From: Candidatus Roizmanbacteria bacterium GW2011_GWC1_37_12
GTDB taxonomy: Bacteria > Patescibacteriota > Microgenomatia > UBA1406 > GWC2-37-13
Assembly: GCA_000991135.1 (NCBI GenBank)
Contig: LBST01000006.1
Coordinates: 46,663 to 110,662 of the forward strand
Length of the DNA: 64,000 nucleotides
Direction: 5' to 3'
Below, piece after piece: positions 2,975-28,841 of the stretch. The stretch's first letter is position 1, and each line of letters starts with the position of its first letter. A program made the translations under genes and the position numbers. The notes under the pieces are model-generated. The model was not told the DNA's origin and did no database searches. It saw nothing but the letters and a program-made list of their open reading frames with translations.

Positions 2975-3517
2975 TTATGGCTTTTTCGGGAAAGTCCCCT
3001 CCGGTGCGTACCAATCCCTGACTTCGACCCCCGACGTAGTCTGTCCAGCAGTGACATTAACTGGTATCAATGAATGATCAGTGCATTCGACTGAAAGCCC
3101 GCAGGGAACCATTTTTGAATAACCGCCGGCTAAACTTGAATTTGAACCAACAGGATAAGCAACCACATAATAAGTCCCTGGATCGACATCTTTTATGGTA
3201 AATGTTCCCTGGTTTTGTCCTGTTTTAATCAGAAAATATTTTGATTGATCAATCGAATTAAATGCATAGACTTCAAGCGCTGGAATACCTTCCGAAGGAT
3301 ATCCTAATTCGCCTTCAATTGTTCCTTTGGTTTCTATAGCCTTTGTCGGTGTCACTGTTGCCGTCGGTATCGCTTCTTCATCAGTTGAAGAAGGAATACT
3401 TTTTTCCAATTTTTTTAGTTCCTGATTTTCTTTTAAAACTGTTTGATATTGATTATATCCCCAATAAGCGCCAAACCCTAGCATGAAAGCAATCAAGGCA
3501 ACTATGACAATTTTCAT
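2975..3517 (-). CDS. Hypothetical membrane-anchored exported protein
   Basis: 180-aa ORF with an N-terminal TM helix and a Thr/Pro linker, then a beta-rich domain with 2 Cys. No family recognised. Confidence 0.5.
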   Translation of the reverse strand: MKIVIVALIAFMLGFGAYWGYNQYQTVLKENQELKKLEKSIPSSTDEEAIPTATVTPTKAIETKGTIEGELGYPSEGIPALEVYAFNSIDQSKYFLIKTGQNQGTFTIKDVDPGTYYVVAYPVGSNSSLAGGYSKMVPCGLSVECTDHSLIPVNVTAGQTTSGVEVRDWYAPEGTFPKKP

Positions 3518-3534
3518 TTTGAAATTTGAAATTT

Positions 3535-12941: not shown

Positions 12942-13327
12942 ACTACCCTGATTTTTATAAAAATATTAAAACGATTGCCATCGTAGGTTTATCTGATAAA
13001 TCTGATCGGCCTTCATACAAAGTTTGTAAATATTTAATGGAACACGGCTTTAAGATTATTCCTGTCAATCCTAATATCGAATCAGTCTTTGGTTTAAAAA
13101 GTTTTCAGAATTTAAAAGATATAAAAGAACCTATCGATGTCGTTGATATTTTTCGAAAATCAGAATTTGTCGAACCTATCGTCGATGAAGCAATCAAAAT
13201 CGGTGCTAAGTCAATCTGGATGCAGGAAGGCGTTGTCAATGAAGTCGCCGCCGCCAAAGCCCGTTCTGCCGGATTAACTGTTGTCATGAACATGTGCATG
13301 ATGAAAGAATACAAAAAAATCATTTGA
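12938..13327 (+). CDS. CoA-binding domain protein (YccU/YneT-like)
   Basis: IAIVGLSDKSDRPSYKV...GFKIIPVNP...VDIFR...GAKSIWMQ, a typical CoA_binding_2 pattern. Confidence 0.8.
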   Translation: MNYPDFYKNIKTIAIVGLSDKSDRPSYKVCKYLMEHGFKIIPVNPNIESVFGLKSFQNLKDIKEPIDVVDIFRKSEFVEPIVDEAIKIGAKSIWMQEGVVNEVAAAKARSAGLTVVMNMCMMKEYKKII

Positions 13328-13360
13328 CAATTAAATAATATACTAGTATACTAGTATACA
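13324..13360 (+). promoter_or_regulatory. Promoter (TTGACA-17-TATACT) overlapped by a tandem CTAG palindromic operator
   Basis: TTGACA 13324-29; TATACT 13347-52; TATACTAGTATACTAGTATAC 13339-59 with CTAG centres 8 bp apart. Confidence 0.55.
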
Positions 13361-13363
13361 AAT

Positions 13364-13609
13364 ATGAACAAAGTAGGGGAGCTTATTGAGTCTTTTTTGA
13401 AAAATAAGACAAGCGCTGAAATGCTTGATTTTTTAAAAGGCATTTTAACACCACATGAGTTTGAAAAACTGGTAACAAGATTGCAAATAGTAAAACTATT
13501 AAAAAAAGGCCTCCCCCACCAAGAGATCGCCCGCCGATTAAAAGTTGGTGTGGCCACGGTGACAAGAGGGTCTAGGGAATTAAGAATGGGAAGATTTAAA
13601 AAAATATGA
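13364..13609 (+). CDS. Trp-repressor-fold regulator (YerC/YecD family)
   Basis: 81 aa; LTPHEFEKLVTRLQIVKLLKKGLPHQEIARRLKVGVATVTRGSREL matches the YerC/TrpR helix-turn-helix pattern. Confidence 0.85.
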   Translation: MNKVGELIESFLKNKTSAEMLDFLKGILTPHEFEKLVTRLQIVKLLKKGLPHQEIARRLKVGVATVTRGSRELRMGRFKKI

Positions 13610-13656
13610 AAAACAAAATATTTTCAAATAATTGGTGGATAGATTCCCTCTGGTGA
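13606..13656 (+). CDS. Candidate Trp leader peptide MKNKIFSNNWWIDSLW
   Basis: The ATG overlaps the upstream stop (ATATGA). 3 of 16 codons are TGG, two of them tandem. Alternative hairpins and a terminator follow immediately. Confidence 0.6.
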   Translation: MKNKIFSNNWWIDSLW

Positions 13657-13709
13657 AGCAGATGATTTTTTGGTGGTCAAACCTCTGCTTCAAGCGGAGG
13701 CTTTTTTTA
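13654..13709 (+). terminator. Attenuator: antiterminator (13654-62 with 13684-92) overlapping an intrinsic terminator (13682-88 / 13694-13700 plus T-run)
   Basis: TGAAGCAGA pairs with TCTGCTTCA. CCTCTGC-TTCAA-GCGGAGG is followed by CTTTTTTT. Confidence 0.6.
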
Positions 13710-13724
13710 TTAATAGTTCAAATT

Positions 13725-13800
13725 GTCATTGCGAGCGTCAGCGAAGCAATCTCAAAAATAGATCCCTCGCTTCCCTTCCAGGGTAAACGCTCGGGATGAC
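13725..13800. repeat. Composite palindromic repeat (GTCATTGCG...CGGGATGAC variant of the GTCAT/ATGAC family)
   Basis: Unit 1 is GTCATTGCGAGCGTCAGCGAAGCAATC. Unit 2 is GATCCCTCGCTTCCCTTCCAGGGTAAACGCTCGGGATGAC. It ends 1 nt before the trpB Shine-Dalgarno GGGAGGAG. Confidence 0.8.
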
Positions 13801-13812
13801 GGGAGGAGAAAT

Positions 13813-15120
13813 ATGAAAAACACAAAAATAACATTATCAGATTCGGAAATTCCGGAATATTACCTAAATATTTCTTATTATTTAAGCAAATATCTTAAGA
13901 AACTTCCGGAGCCGCCTTTAAATCCAGGGACCAAAAAGCCTGTCGGCCCAGCGGATTTGTCAGCGATTTTTCCAATGGAACTAATCAAGCAGGAAGTGTC
14001 ACTTGAAGAAAAAATCAGGATTCCCGAAGAAGTCAGGGAGCTATACAAACTTTACCGGCCGACTCCATTGATTCGCGCCTTTAGGCTGGAAAAATTCTTG
14101 GATACACCCGCTCATATCTATTATAAATACGAGGGAGCAGCGCCAACCGGTGCTCATAAACTAAATACCGCGATCGCCCAGGCTTATTACAACAAAAAGG
14201 AAGGCGTAAAAACCCTGGCGACGGAAACCGGAGCCGGCCAGTGGGGTTCGGCTCTTGCCCTGGCTGCCAATTTCTTTGAAATGAAGTTGGTCGTCTTTAT
14301 GGTAAGAGTCAGTTTGGACCAAAAACCTTTCCGAAAAACCGTTATGGAGACGTACGGCGCCGAAGTCTTTGCCAGTCCGTCGGAAAAGACAGAGTTTGGT
14401 AAGAAAATTTTAAAAACCAATCCCGATCATCCGGGCAGTCTAGGTATTGCCATCAGCGAGGCTCTGGAAACTGTCGTAAAAAATAAAGGCTATAAATATT
14501 CTCTCGGCAGCGTCCTGAATCACGTTTTGCTTCATCAAACAGTGGTCGGGCTTGAAGCAAAGAAACAGATGGAAAAAGACGGAGAATATCCGGATGTCAT
14601 CATCGGCTGCGTCGGCGGCGGCAGTAATTTTGCCGGCATTGCTTTTCCTTTTATGACAGATAAATTAAAAGCCAAAAAGAAAGTCCGTTTCATCGGCGTC
14701 GAACCGTCATCTTGTCCGTCTTTAACCAAAGGCAGGTATAAATACGACTTTGGCGATACCGCCCAGATGACGCCGCTTTTAAAAATGCATACTTTGGGAT
14801 CGGACTTTGTCCCTTCACCCATTCATGCCGGAGGATTGCGTTATCACGGCATGGCGCCATTGATTTCGTTTTTATACAACGAAAAACTAATGGAGGCAGT
14901 TGCCTATGAGCAAAATCCTGTTTTTCAAGCCGGAGTCGATTTTGCCCGTACTGAAGGGATCATTCCGGCGCCCGAGTCAAACCATGCTATAAAAGCGACC
15001 ATCGACGAAGCTCTAAAAGCTAAAAAAGAGGGAAAGAAAAAAATAATTCTTTTCAACCTTTCCGGTCACGGCCTTTTAGATCTCAACGGTTATGACAAAT
15101 TTTTACACAAAAAATTATAA
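13813..15120 (+). CDS. trpB: Tryptophan synthase beta chain, TrpB2 type
   Basis: 435 aa with a TrpB2-type N-terminal extension; PLP-lysine motif [10 protein letters not shown]; GGGSNFAG. Strong SD GGGAGGAG. No trpA nearby. Confidence 0.9.
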
Positions 15121-15135
15121 ATCTAAAGTAAAAAA

Positions 15136-16095
15136 ATGGCAGAGAAGAAAAGTGTTACAAAAATGTGGAGCGCTTTAAATCCTTCTATATTTGAAAGGGG
15201 TAGCTTTACTATGTTGTTTAAAAAACTAGAATTACTAAGTGTTGCTCATACAGTTGCTGACTTAGTTATGCCAAATAATGGGGCTATAGAAAATTTATAT
15301 CTAATAGGCTGCGCCACTGCCAATCGAGAAATAAGAGTAATAAAACAAGCTAATCAATCCTTAGTAAATAAAATTTGTATGAAGAATGTTCAAGCAATAG
15401 ACATTGCCCCTCAACTATTAGCTGTTGCTGATAAAAGATTAAGTTTGTTGAAATTATTTGGCTTAGTGAAAAATTACACAACCCAACAACTTTCTGCAGA
15501 ACAAATCAAATTTACAAAAAATAAAATGAATAGCTTAGCTATTTTAGGTATATACGATTTAAATGGTCTTCTAAAAGAAGGATCAGAAAAAAATGACGAG
15601 CCTTTAGGACTTGATGAATATTCAGGTCCAATGAGAGATGTGCTTGGAGAGTTAACTCAAATTTCATCCCTTCAATATTTAAATAGTGAGTTCAAAGAAA
15701 AAGAATTAATAGCAGATTATGATAGTTCTGCTCCTAATCATAATAATAATAAAATAAGAGAAAAACTTAGAAATTATCATAGTAGCAATACTGATATTTG
15801 CGCAATGAGAATAGCAATAAAGCATAAATCTAATCCTGATTCACCTGTTTTTGTCTCAACTTGGTTTAATTTAGTAATGATGAAATCCATCTTTCAAGAA
15901 TTAGGATTAGATTGTCAAATTAATTCATTAGATAGCGATAAAGGGGCTGTTCTTGTTGTCACTAAAAAAGGTTTTCGAAAGGATTATGGAGCATCAAATA
16001 TTGCACTTGCTCTCAATAATGTTTTTGGTAACTTGGCAAACGATCGAATCTTAACTAATTTTGCAAGAAAACTTGTTACATTTTGCAACAACTAA
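15136..16095 (+). CDS. Hypothetical protein, weak class I SAM-methyltransferase-like pattern
   Basis: 319-aa ORF 15 nt after trpB. LYLIGCATANRE and VQAIDIAPQLLAVA loosely resemble MTase motifs I and post-I. Very AT-rich by eye. Confidence 0.45.
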   Translation: MAEKKSVTKMWSALNPSIFERGSFTMLFKKLELLSVAHTVADLVMPNNGAIENLYLIGCATANREIRVIKQANQSLVNKICMKNVQAIDIAPQLLAVADKRLSLLKLFGLVKNYTTQQLSAEQIKFTKNKMNSLAILGIYDLNGLLKEGSEKNDEPLGLDEYSGPMRDVLGELTQISSLQYLNSEFKEKELIADYDSSAPNHNNNKIREKLRNYHSSNTDICAMRIAIKHKSNPDSPVFVSTWFNLVMMKSIFQELGLDCQINSLDSDKGAVLVVTKKGFRKDYGASNIALALNNVFGNLANDRILTNFARKLVTFCNN

Positions 16096-16099
16096 AAAT

Positions 16100-17275
16100 A
16101 TGAAAAAACAAAGAATAATTATTATCGGTGGAGGATCAACTGGATTATCTACAGCTATAAATTTAGCTAAATTTAATGAAAATGAAATAATAGTTTTAGA
16201 AAAATCTTTTGTTGGCTCTGGACAAACAGGTCAATGTTGTGGTTTTGTCAGAACATTTTACAATAAAAAAGAGATGGCTTTTTCCGCTTTTAAAAGTAAT
16301 CAGGAAATTAAAAGAATTTCAAAGCAAAATAATGATATTGAATATATTAAAAAGGGACTTTTAGTTATAAACAGTTTAAAAAATAAAAATCTGTTGATGG
16401 AAAACATCAAAATGTTAAGGTCATTAGGAATTAAGGCAGAATATCTAGAGAATAAACAACTTAATAAAATTAATCCATACATAAAAACTGAAAATAGTTA
16501 CGCCGGATTTGACCCAGAAGCCGGGTATGTGAATTCACGTCTCGTAGTAGATTACTTAAAAAATCAATGCGAAAATTTAGGAGTTAAAATAATTGAAAAT
16601 ACTAAAGTTTTAAATATTAGACTTAAAAAGAAAATTTTTTATATAAGGACTAATAAAGGCGAACTTAAGGCTGCTAAAGTATTTAACGCCACTGCAGCTT
16701 ACTCAAACAAGATCAATTCTTTTTTTGACTTTCAACTTCCTATAAAAATAGTAAAAACCAATAACTGTTTTTATAGACTACCAATGGGCCCACAAAGATT
16801 TACAACTGCGATCGCTGATTTTGTTAACCTTTTCTATATAATTCCCCATAAAGAGTTTATCGATGTAAGTTCACTCACTGTTGATTTAAAAAAACAAGTA
16901 AATCCTGAAGATAAAAACATCTACAGACTTGATGAAAACGCATCTAAGCAATATTTAAATATAATTTCAAAAAGAATAAAAAATGCTGAGAAATCAAGTC
17001 TCTTGGGAGGTTTTGGTTCATGTATAGATATTAGTCCTGATTATTATCCAATATTAGGCAAAATAGATGAAGTTCCAAATTTCTATTGCGCTACCGGCTT
17101 TAGCGGAACTGGCTTTAAACATTTTCCTATGATTGGAATTCTTATGGCAGAAACTATTCTTGAAAAAAAACCAACTTATCCAAACCTAGTATCATATTTT
17201 AATTATAAAAGATTTGAGAAAGAAAAGGAAAAAGAAAGGAAAAAGGTAACCGATAGTTATTTCGTAAAAAAATAA
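16100..17275 (+). CDS. FAD-dependent amine oxidoreductase (DAO family, sarcosine/N-methylamino-acid oxidase-like)
   Basis: Dinucleotide fold RIIIIGGGSTGLSTA...VLEK and a C-terminal ATGFSGTGFKHFPMIG like the GFSGHGFKF motif of MSOX/MTOX-type enzymes. The ATG at 16100 is preferred over the ORF-track start at 16061. Confidence 0.8.
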   Translation: MKKQRIIIIGGGSTGLSTAINLAKFNENEIIVLEKSFVGSGQTGQCCGFVRTFYNKKEMAFSAFKSNQEIKRISKQNNDIEYIKKGLLVINSLKNKNLLMENIKMLRSLGIKAEYLENKQLNKINPYIKTENSYAGFDPEAGYVNSRLVVDYLKNQCENLGVKIIENTKVLNIRLKKKIFYIRTNKGELKAAKVFNATAAYSNKINSFFDFQLPIKIVKTNNCFYRLPMGPQRFTTAIADFVNLFYIIPHKEFIDVSSLTVDLKKQVNPEDKNIYRLDENASKQYLNIISKRIKNAEKSSLLGGFGSCIDISPDYYPILGKIDEVPNFYCATGFSGTGFKHFPMIGILMAETILEKKPTYPNLVSYFNYKRFEKEKEKERKKVTDSYFVKK

Positions 17276-17276
17276 T

Positions 17277-18872
17277 ATGTTAAGCAAATATGAAATAAGT
17301 CGAGGCGGGAGAGTAAAGGCAGCAGGACTTTCTCTGGCAATGTTCACCGATCCTGCTGAGGCATATTTTGGCCATCCAAATGCAATTAATGCTGCAATGA
17401 TGATAGAGACCTTTACAAGGCTTCGCAAATCACCACCAGATGCAATTCGGAATCGTTTTTTTCCTCGCAATCATTCAACTCATGGTATGTTGAAAAATGG
17501 CGCTGCACTATCTCGAACATCAATTACTAATCATCAAGGGATAGGACAATTTTTAGCACATAGCGAAAAAGACGGAACACAAACGGAAACCCAACTGAGA
17601 ATTGATATTGCAGAACAAACTGGTTTTGTAATTCTTGAAGCACATTTAGAACATCAGATAAACAAACTTCAATATCCTTATGGTATGTACTCAAAAATAC
17701 AGGAAGTGAAAGAGTATTTTGCCAGCGGTAATATTCCTGAAGCCCAATTAGCATATGAAAGACTTTTGCTTGCCGGAGAAGAGCTTGGCATCCAAGTTCA
17801 AAGAACGGCAAAAGTGGGACGTGAAGGTTTATTTTTTATTCACCCAAGCATTTCTAGGTTCCCTATTGAGATTGACTCCGCAACTCATGAAAAAATGCAA
17901 CTTAAAGGTAATCAATTAGTTGAAATCATGGTGGAGATAGCTAATCAGAAACAAAAACAATTCGCGTTTGATCATCAATTACCTACACCATTAAATAAAA
18001 TAGATTATCCTCCACTTTATTTTCAAATTGATTTTTTAATCAATAAGGATCGAAGCTTTGCTGTTTCCGATGTTGGCTTGCCAGACGTTGGATTATTTCT
18101 TACCGCTATTGAGAGTGAGGGAAATCAAACGGTTGAGGAAGCAAAACAAACTGTAGCTGGAAGATTGAATAAAGTGTCATTGTCGATATTTAATAAGGCA
18201 ATAGAATACGGTTCAAAAACGATTAGTTTTATCACGAGAAAATCGGTAATAGAAAACCTTGAAGATACTCTAGAAATAAAGGAAATAGAAGTATTACGGG
18301 GTTTGCTTGAAAAAACAGGATTTCAAACAAACATTATCTCTGAAGAACAAGCTCTGGATATGACCCCTGACGATCTTGGCATACTTATGAATGTGGACAC
18401 GTCATCACCTGGTTTTCAAAACCTTCTAAAAAGAAGGCTTGTTGAAGAATCAGTACCCATTCACCCCGACCCTTTTTTATTACTTGCACAAAATGAACTT
18501 ACTGAACTTCCACAAGTTACTGTATCAAAAGAGAGTATTGATTTACTGAGAGGTGTTTTTTCCACAACAGAAAAAACAGATAATATAACAAAATCAGCAG
18601 TTCAACTAGCGGCTGTTGAACGGATTATTAGAAAGTTAGGAATGCCAGATGAATGCGACATTTTTCATATGTACATTCCTGGTCAACCAACTCCCATTCC
18701 ATTTTATCAATTTGACTTAAAAGGATTACAGGTTGCCCTAAACTACGCCGTTGATGCTCCCGAAGTATTACTTAGAGGAATACCTGTCAATCCTGATAAT
18801 GCTGTTCTTTTTGATACTAATGGTAAACCTGTTTATGCAACATTTCGTTATATGTTTAATCAAAAACTATGA
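17277..18872 (+). CDS. Hypothetical 531-aa protein (very tentative ATP-grasp-like ligase features)
   Basis: Long ORF 1 nt after the flavoenzyme gene. LYFQIDFLINKDRSFAVSDVGLPDVG vaguely recalls the ATP-grasp xDFxx..ExNxxPG strand-loop. No firm family. Confidence 0.55.
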   Translation: MLSKYEISRGGRVKAAGLSLAMFTDPAEAYFGHPNAINAAMMIETFTRLRKSPPDAIRNRFFPRNHSTHGMLKNGAALSRTSITNHQGIGQFLAHSEKDGTQTETQLRIDIAEQTGFVILEAHLEHQINKLQYPYGMYSKIQEVKEYFASGNIPEAQLAYERLLLAGEELGIQVQRTAKVGREGLFFIHPSISRFPIEIDSATHEKMQLKGNQLVEIMVEIANQKQKQFAFDHQLPTPLNKIDYPPLYFQIDFLINKDRSFAVSDVGLPDVGLFLTAIESEGNQTVEEAKQTVAGRLNKVSLSIFNKAIEYGSKTISFITRKSVIENLEDTLEIKEIEVLRGLLEKTGFQTNIISEEQALDMTPDDLGILMNVDTSSPGFQNLLKRRLVEESVPIHPDPFLLLAQNELTELPQVTVSKESIDLLRGVFSTTEKTDNITKSAVQLAAVERIIRKLGMPDECDIFHMYIPGQPTPIPFYQFDLKGLQVALNYAVDAPEVLLRGIPVNPDNAVLFDTNGKPVYATFRYMFNQKL

Positions 18873-19258
18873 AATTCTGCACACCAATTAATACGAATAA
18901 TGCGGTGAGGTTTGCCATGAAGTTATTGTTGTCTTCCAAGGAGTCGGTGGACATGACCATGGATATGCAGGGCGAAATAGACCATCCACTGCCGCAAAGG
19001 TATCATCATTTGATAGCACGACTTGTGAAATGTAAGATAACGGTAGCCCGATATATGTACGGAGAAAAAAAATTATTTGAGGAGATTAAGAATCGGTATG
19101 AAGGAGTTCGAGTATATTATGGCGGCAAAATGGACAGGTACCAGCGAATGCTCATTATTGATAAAAAAAAGGGCATGTTTGCGCTGAATGGGAATATATT
19201 TTTCACCACCTTTAAGCCACTTATTAACAGTTTATTTATTTATATTTCAGTTAATTAA
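18869..19258 (+). CDS. Hypothetical 129-aa protein, translationally coupled to the 531-aa ORF
   Basis: ATGA start/stop overlap at 18869-18872. No motif recognised. Confidence 0.45.
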   Translation: MKFCTPINTNNAVRFAMKLLLSSKESVDMTMDMQGEIDHPLPQRYHHLIARLVKCKITVARYMYGEKKLFEEIKNRYEGVRVYYGGKMDRYQRMLIIDKKKGMFALNGNIFFTTFKPLINSLFIYISVN

Positions 19259-19268
19259 TTAACTGAAA
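19245..19268. promoter_or_regulatory. Perfect 24-bp palindrome TTTCAGTTAATTAATTAACTGAAA upstream of trpS
   Basis: Spans the stop codon of the 129-aa ORF and lies 25 nt upstream of the trpS -10 TATAAT (19293-98). AGTTAA/TTAACT half sites resemble TrpR operator half sites. Confidence 0.4.
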
Positions 19269-19305
19269 CAAATAATTTACAAAATATTTAGGTATAATCA
19301 AAACT

Positions 19306-20775
19306 ATGATAGATCAAAAAGTAACAGACTATAGTGAACTGCTTACCAATCTTGGTATAGAAAATAAGGTATTAAGCCATCCTGAATCAAGAAATATTGA
19401 TCAAGTTATCGGTTCTCTTGGCAAAACAAGATCAGATAGTGCTGCAACACTGGTTATGAAAGCTGATGATACATATATCTCCATCATTAGAAGAGACGAC
19501 TGTAAGTTAAATACCAAAAAAGTAAAAAAACTTTTAGGAGTAGATAGTTTAAGGATCGCAACTGATGAAGAATTTATTGAAATCACAGGATTAATTCCTG
19601 GAGCAGCCACGTATTTTAATAAAAATATCACTAAGGTTTTAATTGATAAAAAAGTTTTAGAAAAGGAATTTATAGTTGGCGGCTCGGGAAGTTTTTTATT
19701 TAGTATAAGTCATAAAACATCGGATTTAACAAAAATCCCCGGAAGTCAATTAGTTGATGTTGCTGAAGAAAGTTTAGTAATAACTGATTCAAAATATTTG
19801 GGGAAAAAACGGGTTTTTTCAGGAATCAGGGCAACAGGTAGATTGCATTTAGGTAATTATCTGGGAGCAGTTAAAGGGTTTCTCGAACTTGAAAAAACCT
19901 GCAAATACGAAACTGTTTACTGTGTTGTTGATGTGCACTCAATAACAACCCCATATGATAAAGAAGCGCTTGCCAAAAATAAAAGAGAAATCATCATTGA
20001 TTATTTGGCAGCTGGACTTGATCCAAAAAAAAGTATCATTATCTATCAGTCGGATGTACCGGAACATATTGAGTTGGCATTCTATTTTTCAACAGTTGAA
20101 ACGATTGCGAGGATGATGCATCTGCCAACTTATAAAGAAAAAGTAAAACAGTATCCAAACGCCAATACAATGGCTCTTTTGAACTATCCGATTTTAATGG
20201 CGGCTGATATTTTAATCTATAAAGCTAGCCTTGTCCCAGTTGGCATTGATCAAGAACCACATTTGGAAATCACCCGGGAAATTGCCAGAAAGATGAATCA
20301 ACTTTACGGAACCGATTTTCCTGAGCCTGTCAGGTTTGCTACTAAAGGAGAATATATTCCATCTCTTACTGGCGAGGGAAAAATGAGCAAGACTGTTGCC
20401 GGAAGTTTTATCAATCTAACTGATTCTTTTGATGAAATTAGGAAAAAGATCCGATCAGCTCCGACGGCAACCACATCAGGAGGTGAAATGTCTTCTGGAG
20501 TAAAAACTCTTTTTACTTTTGCCCAATTATTTATCCCAAACGAAGTCGAAGGATTTAAAAAGTCATTTGAGGACAAATCTCTCCAATTTGTCCGACTAAA
20601 AGATGCTATTTCCGAGGCGATTTATAAAGAACTTAAACCATTCCAAGAAAGACGGGCAAAAATCGCCGCTGATCAAAAATATGTTGACGAAGTGATCAAA
20701 GATGGCGCCGAACGCGCCCGCAAAATCGCCAAGGAAACCGTCCGTGAAGTCAAACAAAAGATGGGTTTACTATAG
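19306..20775 (+). CDS. trpS: Tryptophan--tRNA ligase with N-terminal YbaK/ProX-like (aminoacyl-tRNA editing fold) domain
   Basis: Residues about 168-489 are TrpRS (GRLHLGNYLGA, KMSKT). Residues 1 to about 165 match the YbaK/EbsC pattern (LSHPESR...TLVMK...ISIIRRDDCKLNTKKVKKLLG...TGLIPGA...VGGSG). Confidence 0.85.
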   Translation: MIDQKVTDYSELLTNLGIENKVLSHPESRNIDQVIGSLGKTRSDSAATLVMKADDTYISIIRRDDCKLNTKKVKKLLGVDSLRIATDEEFIEITGLIPGAATYFNKNITKVLIDKKVLEKEFIVGGSGSFLFSISHKTSDLTKIPGSQLVDVAEESLVITDSKYLGKKRVFSGIRATGRLHLGNYLGAVKGFLELEKTCKYETVYCVVDVHSITTPYDKEALAKNKREIIIDYLAAGLDPKKSIIIYQSDVPEHIELAFYFSTVETIARMMHLPTYKEKVKQYPNANTMALLNYPILMAADILIYKASLVPVGIDQEPHLEITREIARKMNQLYGTDFPEPVRFATKGEYIPSLTGEGKMSKTVAGSFINLTDSFDEIRKKIRSAPTATTSGGEMSSGVKTLFTFAQLFIPNEVEGFKKSFEDKSLQFVRLKDAISEAIYKELKPFQERRAKIAADQKYVDEVIKDGAERARKIAKETVREVKQKMGLL

Positions 20776-20779
20776 GCGT

Positions 20780-20794
20780 ACACCCTTCGGGTGT
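20780..20794. terminator. GC hairpin ACACCC-TTC-GGGTGT between convergent trpS and HAD genes
   Basis: 6-bp GC-rich stem 5 nt after the trpS stop. Same CACCC-N3-GGGTG type as hairpins at 5747, 6550 and 28856. Confidence 0.4.
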
Positions 20795-20813: not shown

Positions 20814-21419
20814 TTACAGCAAGAGTTTGGAAAGCTTGAAAACTGATTCTTTTACATTTTTTTCACCAAACCAAAAAGTCTGCCAACCAGATTTCTTTGC
20901 ACCTTCAATAAAATCTTTTCTATCATCAATAAGTAAAATTTCCTCTTCTTTTACACCGACTAAATTTGTTGCTAATTTATATATTTCTCTTTCTGGTTTT
21001 CTGAAACCTACTTCGTAAGAAAGAACAACTACAGAATATTTAATATCTGTAACCATTCCTTTCTCTATAAGTCTTGGCATCATACCTTTATAAAGATTGG
21101 AAATTAACCCTATCTTGTACTTTTTTGAAAGTTGACGGGCAAGTTCATGAACTTCAAGCCGTGGTCGATAATCCCCCATCCAGCTTTCAACAAAGTTATA
21201 ATTATCTGCATTTTTCAAACCAAATTTTTTTATCGCCAATTTCCAAACATCTTGTGGAGAAATTTTTCCTCTTGTAATGTCATCCCATATTTTCCCGCTC
21301 CAAAGCTTATTGAATTCTTCGAAATTGATTTTGAATTTCGAAGTTACCGTCCTAAAAGAATCACTCCAATCATTCATCACTCCACCAATGTCAAAATAAA
21401 TAAATTTAATTTTTTTCAT
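20814..21419 (-). CDS. HAD-superfamily hydrolase
   Basis: Motif I-like YFDIGGV, KIGLISN and LLIDDRKDFIEGAKKSG; 201 aa. Confidence 0.75.
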   Translation of the reverse strand: MKKIKFIYFDIGGVMNDWSDSFRTVTSKFKINFEEFNKLWSGKIWDDITRGKISPQDVWKLAIKKFGLKNADNYNFVESWMGDYRPRLEVHELARQLSKKYKIGLISNLYKGMMPRLIEKGMVTDIKYSVVVLSYEVGFRKPEREIYKLATNLVGVKEEEILLIDDRKDFIEGAKKSGWQTFWFGEKNVKESVFKLSKLLL

Positions 21420-21488: not shown

Positions 21489-22088
21489 ATGAAAAAACCT
21501 GTCTTTGCTTTTATAGACGCTTCTAATCTTTTTTATGGCGGAGAGAAAAGCCTGGGATGGAAAATCGATTATCGAAAACTAATTAAATATATCAAAAGAA
21601 AATATCTTGTCAAAAAAGTATTTTATTATGGCGGAGTCGAACTTAACGGATTCCTTTATTCAATTTTAGACAAACAGCCAATTAATCTAAATAAACTAAT
21701 AAGTTACCTAAACGGAAAGAAACCTATTGATAAAAAATCTATTCAACGAATCAAATTCTATTTGAAACTAGCCGAATTCGGTTATTTGCTCAAACTTAAA
21801 CCGGTTAAGATCTTCCGTGAACCAGACGGAAGAATTTCCAAAAAGGCTAACTGTGACGTCGACATGACCTTTGATTTGATGAGATACATAAAAGATTATT
21901 CTGACGTTTTGATTTTATCGGGAGATGGAGATTTTGCCATTGTTTTAAAATATTTGATGCAACTTGGTAAAAAAGTTACAGTGTTAGCTCGAGGTGAAAG
22001 AACAGCAAGAGATATTCGTCAATTAGTCGGTGGAGATTTTCGAGATTTTAGCAGATTGCGAAAAGAAATTGAATTTATAAAAAAATAG
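21489..22088 (+). CDS. NYN/LabA-like domain protein (predicted RNase fold)
   Basis: FIDASNLFYG, CDVDMTFDLM and ILSGDGDF are characteristic acidic motifs of NYN (DUF88) domains. Confidence 0.8.
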   Translation: MKKPVFAFIDASNLFYGGEKSLGWKIDYRKLIKYIKRKYLVKKVFYYGGVELNGFLYSILDKQPINLNKLISYLNGKKPIDKKSIQRIKFYLKLAEFGYLLKLKPVKIFREPDGRISKKANCDVDMTFDLMRYIKDYSDVLILSGDGDFAIVLKYLMQLGKKVTVLARGERTARDIRQLVGGDFRDFSRLRKEIEFIKK

Positions 22089-23493: not shown

Positions 23494-23781
23494 TTATTTT
23501 AATACCTTCTCATATCCACCACATCCTCTAAATAACCAGTGAGCTGTTCGCGTAACCGTAGTTGTTGAGACTCCAAGTTTCTTAGCGATTGCCTTATAAG
23601 ACATTCCTTTTTTAAGGAGTCTCGCCATCTCTAGTCGATTTGCAAATTCTTCAATCTCTTTTATCGTTAAAAGATCTCTTAAAAAATTGGCTACATCCTG
23701 TTCTGTTTTCAATTTTAAGAAGGCACTAGACAGTGCCTTCTCTTTATCATTTTTTGGTTTATAGTTTTGAAAATTAGACAT
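23494..23781 (-). CDS. Trp-repressor-fold regulator (YerC/YecD family), second paralog
   Basis: 95 aa; LLTIKEIEEFANRLEMARLLKKGMSYKAIAKKLGVSTTTVTRTAHWL. TATAAT lies 6 nt upstream of the ATG. Confidence 0.85.
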   Translation of the reverse strand: MSNFQNYKPKNDKEKALSSAFLKLKTEQDVANFLRDLLTIKEIEEFANRLEMARLLKKGMSYKAIAKKLGVSTTTVTRTAHWLFRGCGGYEKVLK

Positions 23782-24089: not shown

Positions 24090-25652
24090 ATGAAACAAAT
24101 AAATGAAGTCACTATCACGGGTCGCGATTTAACAATTGAACAAATTAAGGCAGTTGCCAGAGATTATGTCAAACTAGAAATTGGTAAAGAAGCTTTTTCT
24201 AAAAGTAAGCAAGGATACAATATTTTACAGGAAAAAATTAATAAAAAAGAAAAAATTTATGGCGTAACAACCGGGTTTGGTGAATTTTCTCAAGTATTTA
24301 TTGATCCTGAAAAAGCGGCTCAATTACAACTTAATCTTATCCTAAGCCACAGCACCGGAGTTGGCGATCCAGCTTCCGAAGATGTCGTTCGCGCCACCAT
24401 GTTGTGCCGAGCTAACTATCTGGCGTCAGGCATGTCAGGAGGAAGACCTATTCTTTTGCAAATTCTTATTGAAATGTTAAATAAAAGAGTTACTCCTTTA
24501 ATACTGGAACAAGGATCAGTAGGATCAAGCGGAGATCTGGCTCCATTGGCAATGATGGTCTTACCGATGATTGGCGTTGGCGAAGCGTTTTACCAAGGCA
24601 AGAGAATGTCTGGAAAATTAGCAATGGAAAAAGCTGGTATTCCTTTGATAAAACTCCAAGCTAAAGAAGGATTGGCCTTGATCAATGGCGATACTTTTAT
24701 GGCTGGATTAGGATCTCTTGAACTTTATGATGCTTTGCAATTAGCAAAAATTTCTGAGATTTCCTGTGCAATGACAATGGAAGCAATTGAGGTGGTCCTT
24801 CAAGCTATGGATGAAAAAATTGCTAGAGCAAGAAGGTTCAATGGTCAAATTACAGCAGCTAGAAATTTAAGAAAACTCATGAATAAGAGTGAAATTCTTG
24901 CCGGACCTCCACAGCGAGTTCAAGACGCTTATTCGATCCGTTGCGCACCAGTTATTCTCGGTGCTAGTCGAGAAGCTCTCCTTTGGGTAAAGCGCCAGTT
25001 TGAAACAGAGATTAACGCCGCTCAAGATAATCCATTAGTGTTTTTAGAAACAAAGGAAGTTTTATCAGGTGGCAATTTTCACGGTCAACCAATAGCCATG
25101 CCTTTGGAAACTATGGCTCAAGCAATTCAAGAATATGCCAATAGTTCAGAAATTCGTCAGGAACGAATGAATAATCCTTATTACAGTAAAATATTGCCGG
25201 CATTTCTTATCGAATCAGGCGGATTAAATTCAGGATTTATGATGCCCCAGTATGCATCAGCTGCGCTAGTCAATGAAAACAAAATCCTTTGCTACCCGGG
25301 AATCGTTGACTCAATTCCTGTTTCAGCCGGACAAGAAGATGACTGTTCAATGGGAACAAATGCTGCTTTAAAAATTCAAAGAATAATAAGGAACACCATG
25401 TATGTCTTGGCAATTGAACTTATGCTCGGTTGTCAAGCATTGGACTTTAAAAAAGGCAAAAAACCAGGTCTTGGAGTATTTGTTGCATACAAATTAATTA
25501 GAGAAACAGTTCCCTATATTAAAAAAGATTCAATCATGTATCCAATGGTTAAAGAAATTTTTGAACTAATAAAGTCAGAAAAAATAGTCCAAACAGTAGA
25601 AAATTCTATCGGCAAATTAGAAGAACCGAAAGATTTACTAAAACCACTATGA
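24090..25652 (+). CDS. Histidine ammonia-lyase-like MIO enzyme (aromatic amino acid lyase family)
   Basis: GVTTGFGEF, LILSHSTGVG (the Ser-His pair typical of HAL rather than PAL/TAL), MIO-forming GSVGSSGDLAPLA (SSG instead of ASG), NGDT and QDAYSIRC. Confidence 0.85.
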   Translation: MKQINEVTITGRDLTIEQIKAVARDYVKLEIGKEAFSKSKQGYNILQEKINKKEKIYGVTTGFGEFSQVFIDPEKAAQLQLNLILSHSTGVGDPASEDVVRATMLCRANYLASGMSGGRPILLQILIEMLNKRVTPLILEQGSVGSSGDLAPLAMMVLPMIGVGEAFYQGKRMSGKLAMEKAGIPLIKLQAKEGLALINGDTFMAGLGSLELYDALQLAKISEISCAMTMEAIEVVLQAMDEKIARARRFNGQITAARNLRKLMNKSEILAGPPQRVQDAYSIRCAPVILGASREALLWVKRQFETEINAAQDNPLVFLETKEVLSGGNFHGQPIAMPLETMAQAIQEYANSSEIRQERMNNPYYSKILPAFLIESGGLNSGFMMPQYASAALVNENKILCYPGIVDSIPVSAGQEDDCSMGTNAALKIQRIIRNTMYVLAIELMLGCQALDFKKGKKPGLGVFVAYKLIRETVPYIKKDSIMYPMVKEIFELIKSEKIVQTVENSIGKLEEPKDLLKPL

Positions 25653-26563
25653 ATAATTCGTTATCACTAGGCGAAGGCAATACACCACTAATCCGTCTCT
25701 TTAATTTAGAGACATTATTAAATTGGAAAGGTGAAATCTGGGTAAAAGCCGAATACCAGAATCCAACTGGTTCTTTTAAAGACCGAGGCAGTGTTACCGA
25801 AATAACCGATGCTTTGAATCAAAAAAAACAAGGTGTTATTTGCGCATCGACCGGAAATATGGCGGCTAGTTTATCAGCCTATGCTTCAAGAGTGAGTTTA
25901 AAATGTTTTGTTGTTGTACCGAAAAATACTCCCCTAGGAAAACTCAAGCAAGCGGCTGTTTGCGGAGCTAAGTTAATAGAAATTGACGGAAACTATGATC
26001 TATGTGTCAAAAAAGCCAAAGAAATTGCTTCAAGAGAAAATCTTCTCCTCTGTGGTGATTATGAGTTAAGGAGATTAGGACAAAGATCTCTAGGACGGGA
26101 ATTAGCCGAATCAGGAATTGATTTTGATGCGTTTGTCGTACCAGTAGGTAATGGAACTCTAGGCTGTGCCATTATTGAAGGATTTGTTGAAAAAGACAGG
26201 TGGCCTCAATTTATCGGAGTTCAAGGAGAAGGATCTGACCCAATAACATTAGCTTGGCAAAATCAAACTGAATCACTTCGATTAATCGAAGTGCCTCAAA
26301 CTGTTGCCTCGGCCATGAAAGTCGGCAACCCTCTTGACGGAAAATTGACTTTAAACTGGGTTTACGAAACTAACGGAATGATGTTGTCTGTTGATGATAA
26401 AGAAATCCTTCTTGCCCAAAAACTTCTTGCTCAAAAAGAAGGAATCTATGTCGAAACTTCTGCTGCCGCAACTTTAGCCGGCTTAATTATTATAAAAAAT
26501 AAAATAAATTCTTTAAAAATTGTTCTTATCCTTACCGGAAGCGGGTTAAAGGAAATAATTTAA
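25649..26563 (+). CDS. Threonine-synthase-like PLP enzyme (fold type II), short form
   Basis: GNTPLIRL, YQNPTGSFKDRG (PLP lysine) and CASTGNMAASLSAYA. 304 aa. ATGA overlap with the HAL-like gene. Confidence 0.8.
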   Translation: MNNSLSLGEGNTPLIRLFNLETLLNWKGEIWVKAEYQNPTGSFKDRGSVTEITDALNQKKQGVICASTGNMAASLSAYASRVSLKCFVVVPKNTPLGKLKQAAVCGAKLIEIDGNYDLCVKKAKEIASRENLLLCGDYELRRLGQRSLGRELAESGIDFDAFVVPVGNGTLGCAIIEGFVEKDRWPQFIGVQGEGSDPITLAWQNQTESLRLIEVPQTVASAMKVGNPLDGKLTLNWVYETNGMMLSVDDKEILLAQKLLAQKEGIYVETSAAATLAGLIIIKNKINSLKIVLILTGSGLKEII

Positions 26564-26564
26564 A

Positions 26565-26729
26565 ATGAAAATTGAAATTCCTGATTTAAATCCCTTTCAA
26601 ATAATAGGTTCATTTCCACGACTATCTGTCGTAGCGGCGAGAGAACCTAGTTTATTTCTTATCCCAACCCCTATTAAATATGAGGAATTACAACAAAGGT
26701 CTAGTGAATTATTTTCCAGATATATATAA
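26565..26729 (+). CDS. N-terminal fragment (motif 1 region) of the HisRS-like protein, in a different frame from the main ORF
   Basis: The ATG lies 1 nt after the upstream stop. MKIEIPDLNP...SLFLIPTPIKYEELQQRSSELFSRYI resembles the HisRS/HisZ N-terminus and the class II motif 1 proline region. It ends at TAA 26727-29 within GATATATATAATGG. Confidence 0.5.
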   Translation: MKIEIPDLNPFQIIGSFPRLSVVAAREPSLFLIPTPIKYEELQQRSSELFSRYI

Positions 26730-27771
26730 TGGCAGGCTTCCTTATAGATTTGTTTATCCTGCGGAAGCATTTAAAACTTATTTAGAAATTTATATTCTTC
26801 TTTTTGACCCGAAGGCTCAACCTGTTCCTGCAAAAGATGTCTTTACAGTAAAAACAGACGACGGCCAAATCGGTTATTTATCAAGAAGTAGTTTTTGGAG
26901 TGCTGTTTTTGACGGTGTGTCGGCAACGAAAAATAATTATTATTTATTGGAGCGGGGAAATGTCTTAAATGTTGGTGGAGTTCAGCCTTGTTTTAGAAAT
27001 GAAGTTAAAGAAATTGAGCCTGGCTGGAGGGAACTTGGTTTTCTTCAAGCTGACATAGAATTAGTTGGTTTAACAACCGAGACAAGAACTCCACAGTGGT
27101 TTGACAAGACGGCTGTCAAACAGTTAATTACTTCTTTAGAATCCATAAATATTCCTCGGCCTTTTATTCAAATCAGACTCAATAATTTTTTCCAAATTTT
27201 ATATGAAGTATTGGGAGACAAAATTGGTTTTTTGGAAAAAGAGATATTTGGGTTAGATTCTTTGGATAAAATGGCCACTGCAAGAGTAAACAAAAATCGA
27301 GAAGAATTTAGTCAATTACAAAAACTTGCTTTTTCCCAACTAGATCTTTGGCTATCCGAAAATAAACTATCAAAAGAGGCAGAAAGTTTTTTATCAACTC
27401 TTGTAACTTCGGGTGTTTATGATGAACAGATACTTAAAACAAGTTTTCCAAATTCGTATCAATCTCTTCAAAACTTAAAAGAAATTGTCGAAGAAATTCA
27501 AAAAGAATATCCTGAATTAACTGTTTTTATTGATCCTCTGTCTGTTAGAGCAGGTACTCCAGGATATGATGGTATGACTATGCAGGCTGATGTAAAAACA
27601 TTGACCAAAATTTTCACCGAACTCGCTGGTGGCGGTGCTTATCAAAGAGCTGCTCAACAAAGCTGGAAAGTCCAATTTCAAGAAAATCCTCCTGAAAATT
27701 TATATATGATCGGTTTCGCCCTTGGACTGACACGTCTCAACACAGCTTTAAATTATTTAAGCCAACAATGA
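26680..27771 (+). CDS. HisRS-like class II aminoacyl-tRNA-synthetase paralog (HisZ-like, no anticodon-binding domain); probably continuous with 26565-26729 through a +1 shift
   Basis: Motif 2-like GGVQPCFRNE...ELGFLQADIELVG, VRAGTPGYDGMTMQ (compare RGLDYYTG) and motif 3-like ELAGGGAYQRAA (compare GGGRYD). Confidence 0.65.
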   Translation: MRNYNKGLVNYFPDIYNGRLPYRFVYPAEAFKTYLEIYILLFDPKAQPVPAKDVFTVKTDDGQIGYLSRSSFWSAVFDGVSATKNNYYLLERGNVLNVGGVQPCFRNEVKEIEPGWRELGFLQADIELVGLTTETRTPQWFDKTAVKQLITSLESINIPRPFIQIRLNNFFQILYEVLGDKIGFLEKEIFGLDSLDKMATARVNKNREEFSQLQKLAFSQLDLWLSENKLSKEAESFLSTLVTSGVYDEQILKTSFPNSYQSLQNLKEIVEEIQKEYPELTVFIDPLSVRAGTPGYDGMTMQADVKTLTKIFTELAGGGAYQRAAQQSWKVQFQENPPENLYMIGFALGLTRLNTALNYLSQQ

Positions 27772-28841
27772 TAAAAAAAGAATTGATTGAACTTAATAAA
27801 AAACTAGTACGATTTAAAACAATCTCCTCAAATAAATCCGAACTAGAAAGATGTATTAGATTTATAGAGAATTATTTTAATATCAATAATTTATTTAAAA
27901 AAATATTTTATTCTAATGGTATTCCTTCGCTCCTCGTGTCCAACTCATTATCAAAAAACCCGGATTTATTATTGAACGGCCATATAGATGTAGTGGAAGG
28001 CAATAATAATCAATTTAAGCCTTTTGTCAAAAACGATAAACTTTATGGAAGAGGGACGATCGACATGAAATCTTCAATAGCTGTGATTATGCTTATTATG
28101 AAGAAGCTTAAATCCACTAATAAAAAAATCTCGGCGATGTTTGTAAGCGATGAAGAGATTTTTGGTAAAGACGGTACAAAATATATTCTCAATAAAGGTT
28201 ATAAGCCAAAATTCACAATAATCACGGAGGAATCAAACTTTGATATCGTTATTAAACAAAAAGGCCAGTTAACTTTAAAACTTGAGGCAAAAGGAAAATC
28301 CGGTCATGGATCACAACCATGGACTGGACTAAATGCTATTGAAGAATTAATTGAAATTTATCAAAAAATAAGAAATTTATTTCCAAAAGAACAAAAAAAC
28401 ACCTGGAATATAAATTCTATTAATTTAGGAATTATTAATGGTGGAGTAGCTCCTAACGTTATTCCCTCAAAGGCAGAATTGATATTAGATATTCGTTATC
28501 CAACAAATCTAAAACTTGATTCTTTCTTAGTTAGATTTTATGGAATTTTAAGAAAATCTAGCGTTACTTATTCTTTATTGACAAAAACAAATCCCATGGA
28601 TTCTGGCAATGCTATATTCTTTATTAATAAACTCAAACCTATTGTTGAAAAACAGATTAAAAGAAAAGCTAAATTAAAATGGACAAATTACTGTAGTGAT
28701 GGTCGTTATTTTTCCGATTCAAAATTACCAGTAATTGAATTTGGTCCGACTGGAGCTAATTATCATACTGATAATGAATATGTAGATATAAACAGTCTGG
28801 TTAATTATTACGAGATTCTAAAGAGATTTATTATTTCTTAG
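27768..28841 (+). CDS. M20 family metallohydrolase (ArgE/DapE/acylase-like)
   Basis: LNGHIDVV, GRGTIDMK, VSDEE, GKSGHGSQP and NGG..PNVIP. Paralog of 49348-50430. Confidence 0.85.
   Translation: MIKKELIELNKKLVRFKTISSNKSELERCIRFIENYFNINNLFKKIFYSNGIPSLLVSNSLSKNPDLLLNGHIDVVEGNNNQFKPFVKNDKLYGRGTIDMKSSIAVIMLIMKKLKSTNKKISAMFVSDEEIFGKDGTKYILNKGYKPKFTIITEESNFDIVIKQKGQLTLKLEAKGKSGHGSQPWTGLNAIEELIEIYQKIRNLFPKEQKNTWNINSINLGIINGGVAPNVIPSKAELILDIRYPTNLKLDSFLVRFYGILRKSSVTYSLLTKTNPMDSGNAIFFINKLKPIVEKQIKRKAKLKWTNYCSDGRYFSDSKLPVIEFGPTGANYHTDNEYVDINSLVNYYEILKRFIIS

Follow-up and report, generated by a model that had tools for sequence, protein, structure and literature searches.

In the trp control of Escherichia coli, the TrpR repressor carries an ATxTRGS reading head and its CTAG-N4-CTAG operator lies over the −10 element, and a short leader open reading frame (ORF) with tandem tryptophan (Trp) codons precedes antiterminator and terminator hairpins that exclude one another, with a U-run; the genes controlled are trpEDCBA. 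In Chlamydia trachomatis, a host-dependent bacterium with no full Trp pathway, an autoregulated trpR comes first in the trpRBA operon and is followed by an intergenic regulatory region and a trpB used for indole salvage (PMC7755916, PMC6504234). Firmicutes have T-box-controlled Trp regulons; T-box-controlled genes usually encode synthetases, biosynthetic enzymes, or transporters of the amino acid concerned, most often aminoacyl-tRNA synthetases (aaRSs) (PMC2494555). Here we compare these systems with an operon in a 64,000-nt stretch of contig LBST01000006.1 (the window) from Candidatus Roizmanbacteria bacterium GW2011_GWC1_37_12, a member of the candidate phyla radiation (CPR) with a tiny genome; its genes for TrpR, for TrpB2 (a stand-alone TrpB-like pyridoxal phosphate enzyme), and for tryptophanyl-tRNA synthetase (TrpRS) enclose four unassigned genes that we label g3–g6. 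An exact protein match agrees with the assignment of the window to a Candidatus Roizmanbacteria genome from the GW2011 set. To our knowledge, CPR bacteria cannot make Trp, which is a costly amino acid.

The ORF list of the window places seven genes in a row on the + strand, that is, trpR, trpB2, g3, g4, g5, g6, and a YbaK::TrpRS fusion gene (trpS). We consider it likely that they form a Trp-starvation operon in which one promoter serves trpR, a leader, and trpB2-g3-g4-g5-g6-trpS under two layers of control, with products that would make more Trp-tRNA(Trp) available. Support is good at the level of the operon; Trp-responsive expression is predicted from the regulatory sequences described below. 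An initial annotation of this DNA had proposed a tryptophan-limitation operon of seven co-oriented genes; the ORF list agrees with the gene count and orientation, and the proposal is favored by two elements of the window, a TrpR operator and a leader attenuator with tandem Trp codons, and by putative T-box leaders with a UGG specifier in relatives. The features are listed by their coordinates in the window.

13324–13359, + strand: promoter with overlapping predicted TrpR operator (−35 TTGACA at 13324–13329, −10 TATACT at 13347–13352)
13364–13609, + strand: trpR-like gene, 81 aa, the first gene of the operon (PF01371, E 1.3e-18)
13606–13656, + strand: trpL-like leader peptide MKNKIFSNNWWIDSLW, 16 codons; start codon shared in part with the stop of trpR (ATGA)
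13646–13708, + strand: attenuator RNA, a predicted antiterminator/terminator switch
13813–15120, + strand: trpB2 (NF009057, 705.5 bits against a cut-off of 366)
15136–16095, + strand: g3, 319 aa, no family match
16100–17275 (ATG start), + strand: g4, DAO family (PF01266, E 1.9e-45)
17277–18872, + strand: g5, 531 aa, no sequence-family match, predicted fold only
18869–19258, + strand: g6, 129 aa, phospholipase D (PLD) fold by AlphaFold2 model
19306–20775, + strand: trpS (YbaK::TrpRS; PF04073, E 1.5e-16; PF00579, E 1.8e-54; TIGR00233, 274 bits)

From trpB2 to g5, the genes are 15, 4, and 1 nt apart; g5 and g6 overlap by 4 nt (ATGA), and 47 nt separate g6 from trpS. The initial annotation had described tight spacing from the repressor onward, which is correct for these genes, but trpR and trpB2 are separated by 203 nt. 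The genes trpB2, g3–g6, and trpS are probably cotranscribed from one promoter. As annotated initially, the repressor, TrpB2, the flavoenzyme g4, and the YbaK::TrpRS fusion are identified by matches to PF01371, NF009057, PF01266, and tRNA_edit plus TIGR00233, respectively; TrpB2 owes its identity to the NF009057 equivalog match, and in L001 and L013 the same slot is occupied by a canonical trpB (TIGR00263, 573–578 bits; L0xx labels denote loci of relatives that carry homologues of g5 and/or g3). TrpB2 would make Trp from indole, and the TrpRS, with its editing domain in cis, would charge tRNA(Trp). Genes for trpA, trpC, trpD, and trpE were not seen in 9–34 kb of the window, in agreement with the absence noted initially. 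The gene order resembles that of C. trachomatis trpRBA, both bacteria are host-dependent and lack a complete Trp pathway, and autoregulation by TrpR is predicted here also; however, the window operon lacks trpA, adds trpS and four further genes, and has a putative ribosome-mediated attenuator in its intergenic region instead of a YtgR site.

The promoter, TTGACA-17-TATACT, is the best promoter-like site of the region (11/12 matches). It is overlapped by the palindrome taCTAGtataCTAGta, which includes CTAG-N4-CTAG at 13343–13354, one of only two such sites in the window; the tetramer CTAG itself is three-fold depleted in the window (79 observed, ~219 expected). The TTGACA...CTAGnnnnCTAG layout is also located 5′ of trpR in L001, L010, L013, L014, and L017. 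The repressor has the Trp_repressor domain, and its alignment with E. coli TrpR retains the LTP, TR, and G-x-A-T-x-T-R-G-S block, the residues that in the TrpR structure serve corepressor binding and DNA reading. By homology, Trp-bound TrpR would occupy the CTAG-N4-CTAG operator over the −10 element and repress transcription when Trp is present, the first layer of control.

The second layer is a putative attenuator. The leader ORF that follows trpR has tandem Trp codons (13633–13638) and ends just 5′ of a terminator, the arrangement of trpL-type leaders; homologous leaders follow trpR in L011 (MQNKLNLNNWWTNFLW) and L013 (MNKSNNNNWWDDLLW). A terminator scan locates the arms CCUCUGC/GCGGAGG at 13682–13700 and a U7 run at 13702–13708. 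A 9-bp antiterminator pairing of UGAAGCAGA (13654–13662) with UCUGCUUCA (13684–13692) overlaps the 5′ arm of the terminator (13682–88), so the two structures are mutually exclusive; a copy of this arm (CCUCUG, 13647–13652) is contained within the last leader codons. The attenuator folds have energies of −26.4 and −14.5 kcal/mol (z ~ −2.35), and L011, L012, and L013 have the block almost unchanged; in L012/P0023 it is located directly 5′ of g5. When Trp-tRNA(Trp) is scarce, a ribosome would stall at the two Trp codons and leave UGAAGCAGA free to pair with UCUGCUUCA, so that no terminator forms and transcription reads through; when charged tRNA is plentiful, a ribosome at the leader stop codon would cover the UGAAGCAGA segment and the terminator would form; if the leader is not translated, the long hairpin with its U-run would form. 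The position of the ribosome would, then, choose between the two hairpins, as in the trp attenuator of E. coli. The GC hairpin with its U7 run (13682–13708) contradicts the statement in the initial annotation that no terminator precedes a hairpin at 20780; that hairpin lacks a T-run, and we do not call it a terminator.

As an operon type, this is a variant among the known Trp regulons; in a CPR genome, a synthetase and salvage genes would be governed by a TrpR operator together with a predicted tandem-Trp attenuator. It differs from the E. coli operon in several respects: the controlled genes are trpS, trpB2, and unassigned genes instead of trpEDCBA; trpR is the first gene of the operon, and the leader ATG overlaps its stop codon; and the 1-2-3-4 scheme gives way to three RNA segments, a second copy of one terminator arm being part of the leader ORF. 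At its gathering scores, Rfam missed every regulatory RNA in the window and 23 loci; a sub-threshold match to the Trp_leader family (RF00513) was obtained in L009 (28.4 bits, gathering score 41).

The four unassigned genes are two modules, g3–g4 and g5–g6, each of which is tied to trpS independently. The g5 set contains 64 loci, 46 of which were added by a metagenome scan with the distant subgroup, and resolves into 46 non-redundant groups; the full-flank set consists of the 25 loci in which g5 has 2.5 kb or more of sequence to either side, and genome contexts were inspected for g5 homologues of 34–78% identity and in seven species genomes. The pattern in the relatives is (TrpR)-(trpB or AstE-like gene)-g5-g6-trpS. 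In the full-flank set, trpS is within 3.5 kb of g5–g6 in 16/25 loci and trpR in 11/25, and any other neighbor of g5 recurs in at most seven loci; trpS is upstream of g5–g6 in some loci and downstream in others. The gene for g6 follows g5 in 50/64 loci (22 of the 25 loci with full flanks), and g5–g6 is expected to be the conserved core partner. The neighboring slot is also held by trpB/trpB2 or by an AstE/AspA-like hydrolase, that is, by a Trp-yielding or a deacylating enzyme. Relatives show synteny of trpS with g3–g4 and with g5–g6, the opposite of what the initial annotation had named as evidence against its proposal.

The regulatory elements 5′ of g5 in the relatives point in the same direction and are the strongest evidence for the link of g5–g6 to Trp. 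A TrpR gene precedes g5 in at least 17 non-redundant groups. Leaders with WW or WWW are located 5′ of g5 in 14/55 loci (25%) as compared to 6.6% of control windows (p 1e-5, although the loci are not all independent); these include at least eight unrelated sequences, and in every case a GC hairpin and U-run come next. In the distant subgroup, putative T-box leaders take their place (the match of L040 to RF00230 has 42.8 bits, E 2.7e-8, below the gathering score); eight aligned leaders share a GUUGGGG specifier region (UGG specifier), AAGGUGGCACCGCG, a UGGC bulge, and a terminator. These UGG-specifier, UGGC-bulge T-boxes, found 5′ of g5-g6 or of g3-g4-NYN-trpS, resemble those of the Firmicutes Trp regulons; they differ in being short, and we could find g5–g6 in no described T-box regulon. 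At least one Trp-sensing device (TrpR gene, WW leader, or T-box) is located 5′ of g5 in at least 32/46 non-redundant groups; the true count is higher, because distance limits missed the window itself, L017, and L042. The g5–g6 regulatory signature is well defined. Because three unrelated sensing mechanisms converge on them across lineages, two uncharacterized gene pairs are exposed as members of Trp regulons independent of annotation; and, because the link to Trp control is kept in distant relatives, g3–g4 and g5–g6 are probably new players in coping with Trp shortage. A tRNA-Trp gene is located 107 nt 5′ of g5 in L015; we rejected linkage to tRNA-Trp genes as a separate argument because it occurs in only two loci, too rare to weigh much.

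The linkage is also indifferent to the kind of TrpRS. The window trpS has a tRNA_edit/YbaK-type editing domain at residues 25–143 fused to the TrpRS core. Two types of TrpRS, 32–39% identical, fill the trpS slot in the relatives in a pattern discordant with the g5 tree; for example, the g5 of L006 is 75% identical to that of the window, yet L006 has the other type of TrpRS, still fused to YbaK. Replacement of one type by the other relative to the window is observed in L006, L002, L014, and L016. Both types can occur with YbaK at the N-terminus, with tRNA_bind at the C-terminus, or without an added domain; L002 encodes tRNA_bind in a gene of its own, located downstream.

The g5–g6 pair is an undescribed family with an unusual fold relationship. 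Searches with g5, profile searches included, gave no Pfam, NCBIfam, PDB-sequence, or PADLOC match; the g5 profile recovered only its own family from 1.84e9 proteins (87 representatives; 7/185,579 species genomes), with no bridge to LanB or ATP-grasp enzymes, and literature searches found no description of the g5–g6 family. Structure prediction followed by Foldseek, as suggested in the initial annotation, places the AlphaFold2 model of g5 (pLDDT 91, pTM 0.90) with LanB/PEARL and ATP-grasp proteins and that of g6 with PLD proteins. The structural matches of g5 are NisB, MadB, TbtB, MibB, and GodF (E 1e-6 to 5e-3, TM score 0.39–0.53), of which NisB, MadB, and TbtB have a probability of 1.00 (E 1e-6 to 7e-4) with a large root-mean-square deviation (rmsd), that is, a distant relation; eukaryotic-type glutathione synthetases also match (E 1e-6 to 7e-5), and Ddl is found further down (probability 0.87). 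PEARLs and LanBs derive from ATP-grasp ligases, and half-size relatives have been described (PMC11117183); these enzymes bind aminoacyl-tRNA (PMC11117183, PMC11962472), and one PEARL, BhaB(C-Trp), adds Trp from Trp-tRNA (PMC11962472).

The invariant residues of the g5 family are R12, K14, R80, Q87, E121, Q250, D252, D270, D330, E333, N372, and R524, all charged except Q87, Q250, and N372; Q250-x-D252 and D265/P269-D270 lie on a β-hairpin. In comparison with the PEARL/LanB enzymes (TglB, BhaB, NisB, TbtB, and MadB), g5 offers their fold as its best structural match, presumptive ATP-grasp ancestry, a conserved Arg near the N-terminus, and one kind of homologue embedded in a biosynthetic gene cluster. 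However, g5 has 531 aa instead of 700–900, no Pfam match to Lant_dehydr_N, no significant sequence similarity, and neither a substrate-peptide gene nor an elimination domain; it has, instead, a PLD-fold partner, Trp-starvation control, and a primary-metabolism context. The only local hhalign match, not significant and no more than a hint, places Y-F-Q-x-D252 of g5 on Y-I-Q-I-D299 of NisB, in which D299 is essential (PMC7296275). In the model, the g5 fold is ligase-like and unlike that of a salvage hydrolase; an ATP-grasp-derived protein of this LanB/PEARL-like fold would activate a carboxylate, and its location beside trpS is suggestive of aminoacyl-tRNA use. Homologues of g5 with all of the invariants are also found at the end of a polyketide synthase–nonribosomal peptide synthetase (PKS-NRPS) cluster on two GC-rich soil contigs, starting 4 nt inside the end of the terminal C-A-T-TE module, a position that fits a carboxylate-activating ligase. 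In these loci (L069, 19–4697; L070, 12–7449), PKS (ER-KR-ACP) and NRPS (C-A-T-TE) modules precede the g5-family gene, g6, trpR, and trpS are absent, and in L070 a GNAT gene is located 3′ of g5; the g5 family, therefore, extends beyond CPR and beyond the Trp regulon.

The partner g6 also has no Pfam, NCBIfam, PDB-sequence, or PADLOC match. Its AlphaFold2 model (pLDDT 93) has the PLD fold, with Foldseek matches (E 1e-5, TM score 0.62–0.70) to the C-terminal domain of TrmB/TrmBL2, NucT, Zucchini, and PLD3/4; in place of the HxK(x)4D motif it has the invariant Y91-Q92-R93-x4-D98. As a subunit with the PLD fold, g6 would probably bind phosphate or a phosphodiester. Between g5 and YbaK::TrpRS, L067 (7604–8830) encodes a fusion of g6 with an AstE/AspA-like zinc amidohydrolase (409 aa); such a hydrolase adjoins g5–g6 in six other loci. 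L067 also has a T-box-like leader at ~5716 and a tRNA-Trp gene at 33–107. We discarded two ideas for these proteins: g6 as a C-terminal carrier protein, because its C-terminus is not conserved and is the fused end in L067; and g5–g6 as a defense system (PLD nuclease plus ATPase), because there is no PADLOC match and the context is a Trp regulon.

The g3–g4 module has a different history. The two genes are AT-rich (29.3% GC vs 37.6% for the window, rank 2/619 among 2.1-kb windows), with GC at third codon positions of 0.19–0.20 vs 0.45 in trpB2, so the AT-rich part at 15.1–17.3 kb that had been seen by eye is real; they are absent from 62/64 g5 loci, and among the inspected g5 loci of relatives they are found only in L017, which copies the window. 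Composition and absence both fit the earlier suggestion of acquired genes, and g3–g4 would be a laterally acquired add-on to the operon. In L018 and L019, g3-DAO-NYN-trpS operons occur without g5–g6; the one in L019 is preceded by a weak T-box match (RF00230, 20.5 bits, E 0.012, gathering score 93). The NYN (RNase-type) gene between g4 and trpS is at 3515–4057 in L018 and 2485–3015 in L019; in the window, an NYN gene (21489–22088) is just past trpS, after a convergent HAD hydrolase gene (20814–21419).

As sequence or as a seven-member profile, g3 has no Pfam, NCBIfam, PDB, or PADLOC match, and only six homologues were found among 5.8e9 protein clusters. The initial annotation had called it methyltransferase-like; this label is tentative at best. 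The motif order G-S/C-A-T-A ... D-I-A-P ... G-x-Y-D is Rossmann/methyltransferase-like by eye only, and no methyltransferase model, including the MnmC methyltransferase domain, is matched. A g3 methyltransferase acting with a demethylating oxidase would, moreover, constitute a futile cycle. In the contexts of L017, L018, and L019, g3 is always 5′ of a DAO-family oxidase. From its matches (PF01266; soxB, E 4e-29; MnmC TIGR03197, weak at E 1.6e-9; best PDB match 1y56_B), g4 is assigned to the DAO family, within its sarcosine-oxidase-β/proline-dehydrogenase branch, as an amine oxidase or dehydrogenase that depends on FAD; a longer ORF begins with a TTG at 16061. The initial annotation had likened it to SolA, the N-methyl-L-tryptophan oxidase (MTOX). 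Like SolA and the monomeric sarcosine oxidases, g4 is a DAO flavoenzyme, but it is nearer to heterotetrameric SoxB and the Pyrococcus horikoshii protein 1y56_B and, unlike SolA, it is always paired with g3. The SolA idea fares better in L018, in which the oxidase paired with g3 beside trpS belongs to a different DAO branch and scores 255.3 bits on the N-methyl-L-tryptophan oxidase model (cut-off 257). That two non-orthologous amine oxidases are paired with g3 beside trpS supports a step from N-alkyl-Trp to Trp; from these sequence relationships, g4 with g3 most likely frees Trp from an N-alkylated form by flavin-dependent oxidation. The broader proposal that all four genes constitute one salvage pathway is not sustained, because the two modules occur independently and the g5–g6 fold is ligase-like.

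What g5–g6 contributes to the Trp-starvation operon must be read from wiring and fold. The wiring is predicted to be ON at low Trp or low charged tRNA, and this suggests that g5–g6 helps to raise, not spend, Trp-tRNA(Trp). A tentative assignment for g5–g6 is a carboxylate-activating ligase that supports charging, with either Trp or the 3′ end of tRNA(Trp) as its target; trapping of free Trp, or a salvage cycle of g5–g6 with the AstE-like hydrolase, is about equally likely. A more specific version, in which g5–g6 is a novel type of primary-metabolism enzyme and g5 couples an acyl-phosphate-activated carboxylate at the 3′ end of tRNA(Trp) with g6 as partner, in a non-adenylate route to Trp-tRNA(Trp) or in a tRNA-bound conversion or correction, we regard as unlikely; if true, it would explain both the convergence of three sensors on g5–g6 and the persistence of g5–g6 beside trpS whatever the type of TrpRS. 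The modeled fold of g5 would extend the tRNA-dependent LanB/PEARL fold beyond peptide natural products, and with 531 aa g5 could be a compact model of how tRNA substrates were acquired by ATP-grasp ligases.

The same fold invites a natural-product explanation, in which g5–g6 with the tailoring enzymes g3–g4 is a small 'pearlin'-type pathway. Trp taken from Trp-tRNA(Trp) would be attached to a carboxylate scaffold by the PEARL-like ligase, the adduct would be tailored by flavin and methyl chemistry, and a hydrolase would release the product; trpS and trpB2 would only feed the pathway. BhaB(C-Trp) clusters also contain a DAO-family glycine oxidase, the AstE-like hydrolase recurs beside g5–g6, and g5 homologues are found in a PKS-NRPS cluster. 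We think this explanation decidedly unlikely, since expression that is ON at low Trp or low charged tRNA(Trp) has the wrong direction for Trp consumption; in addition, no conserved small ORF that could encode a scaffold peptide was found upstream of g5, g3–g4 and the hydrolase never co-occur, the neighbors are housekeeping genes (PBP1A, cysS, ftsH, and rarA), and the trpS in the slot looks like the working copy of the genome because either type of TrpRS can fill it. The theme could instead be tRNA(Trp) itself, with g3–g4 as split MnmC-like tRNA modifiers and g5–g6 repairing, modifying, or alternatively aminoacylating its 3′ end, so that decoding is tuned when charging limits. The order of a methyltransferase-like gene and a DAO gene mirrors MnmC, as does the weak MnmC1 match of g4 (TIGR03197); in L018 and L019 an NYN RNase-domain gene separates g4 from trpS, and the window has one close to trpS; the tRNA-Trp gene in L015, the fold that g5 shares with tRNA-dependent enzymes, the nuclease-type fold of g6 with its conserved Y-x-R...D site, and the control mostly of aaRS genes by T-boxes (PMC2494555) would also fit. 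However, g4 scores far better on sarcosine-oxidase and SolA models than on MnmC, its L018 counterpart is nearly an equivalog of an oxidase that acts on a free amino acid, the CCA anticodon of tRNA(Trp) offers no xm5U34, g3 fails to match even the methyltransferase model of MnmC, and trpB, trpB2, and AstE-like neighbors point to free Trp; we, therefore, judge a tRNA-modification theme quite unlikely.

The clustering could, finally, be inherited gene order, with g3–g6 as unrelated passengers near trpS. Most loci do come from one radiation (CPR), and 7/25 full-flank loci have neither trpS nor trpR nearby; nevertheless, the linkage persists at 20–35% g5 identity and survives changes in gene order, replacement of the TrpRS type, and three different Trp-sensing mechanisms, and the genes are joined by stop/start codon overlaps and, in L067, by the g6–AstE-like fusion, so we consider mere inheritance highly improbable. 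Several observations do weigh against a Trp-starvation operon with g5–g6 at its core. Those seven full-flank loci are among them, as are the 14/46 groups with no recognized Trp sensor, T-box matches that fall below the Rfam gathering score (93), the modest fold z-scores of the window attenuator, and the absence of any match to RF00513 in the window at E up to 1. The transcript itself could be divided if the TATAAT before trpS were an internal promoter. On the protein side, no fold can be assigned to g3, g4 obtains 94.1 bits on the SolA model (NF008425) against a cut-off of 257, the Foldseek TM scores of g5 are only 0.3–0.5 with large rmsd, and hhalign of g5 with NisB (a query 100% identical to 4wd9) and with a profile of 13 LanB sequences, 12 of them from plasmid LanB genes, is not significant (P ~0.24–0.34). 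We also know of no chemistry by which an ATP-grasp ligase would raise the Trp supply, and a canonical TrpRS is already present.

The TATAAT (19293–19298) ends 7 nt 5′ of the trpS ATG. We dropped it, with the adjacent palindrome, as a proven internal promoter because its −35 element is poor; it may give a leaderless trpS mRNA, and relatives have no gap at this position. The AT-only palindrome, TTCAGTTAATTAATTAACTGAA, spans the g6 stop codon (region 19247–19305). Between the attenuator and trpB2, the imperfect palindrome GTCATTGCGAGCGTCAGCGAAGCAATC (13725–13751) occurs as a single copy in the window, with 0 expected by chance; it resembles a repeat or an insert of the miniature inverted-repeat transposable element type and fills part of the 203-nt spacer.

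Some loci of the relatives have further features. In L044, a prephenate-dehydratase-like ORF (3462–4121, recognized by eye) is located 3′ of g6; in L043, L044, and L062, 0.9–1.2 kb without a convincing ORF separate g5 from the T-box leader. Within 5 kb of g5, loci of the distant subgroup have 16S rRNA genes (L040, 1429–2889; L037, 10917–11287), which could help to assign this subgroup a taxonomic position; L037 also carries a group II intron fragment. The records for L011, L013, and L016 are labeled 'uncultured Gammaproteobacteria'; their Roizmanbacteria-like synteny and 50–52% g5 identity suggest mislabeling.

The window contains a second TrpR-family gene (23494–23781, − strand; PF01371, E 2e-19), divergent from a four-gene operon that encodes an aromatic amino-acid lyase (24090–25652), a PALP enzyme (25649–26563), a HisRS-like class II protein (26680–27771), and an M20 peptidase (27768–28841). 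No CTAG-N4-CTAG operator is visible upstream of this gene, which is syntenic in L012 and L013.

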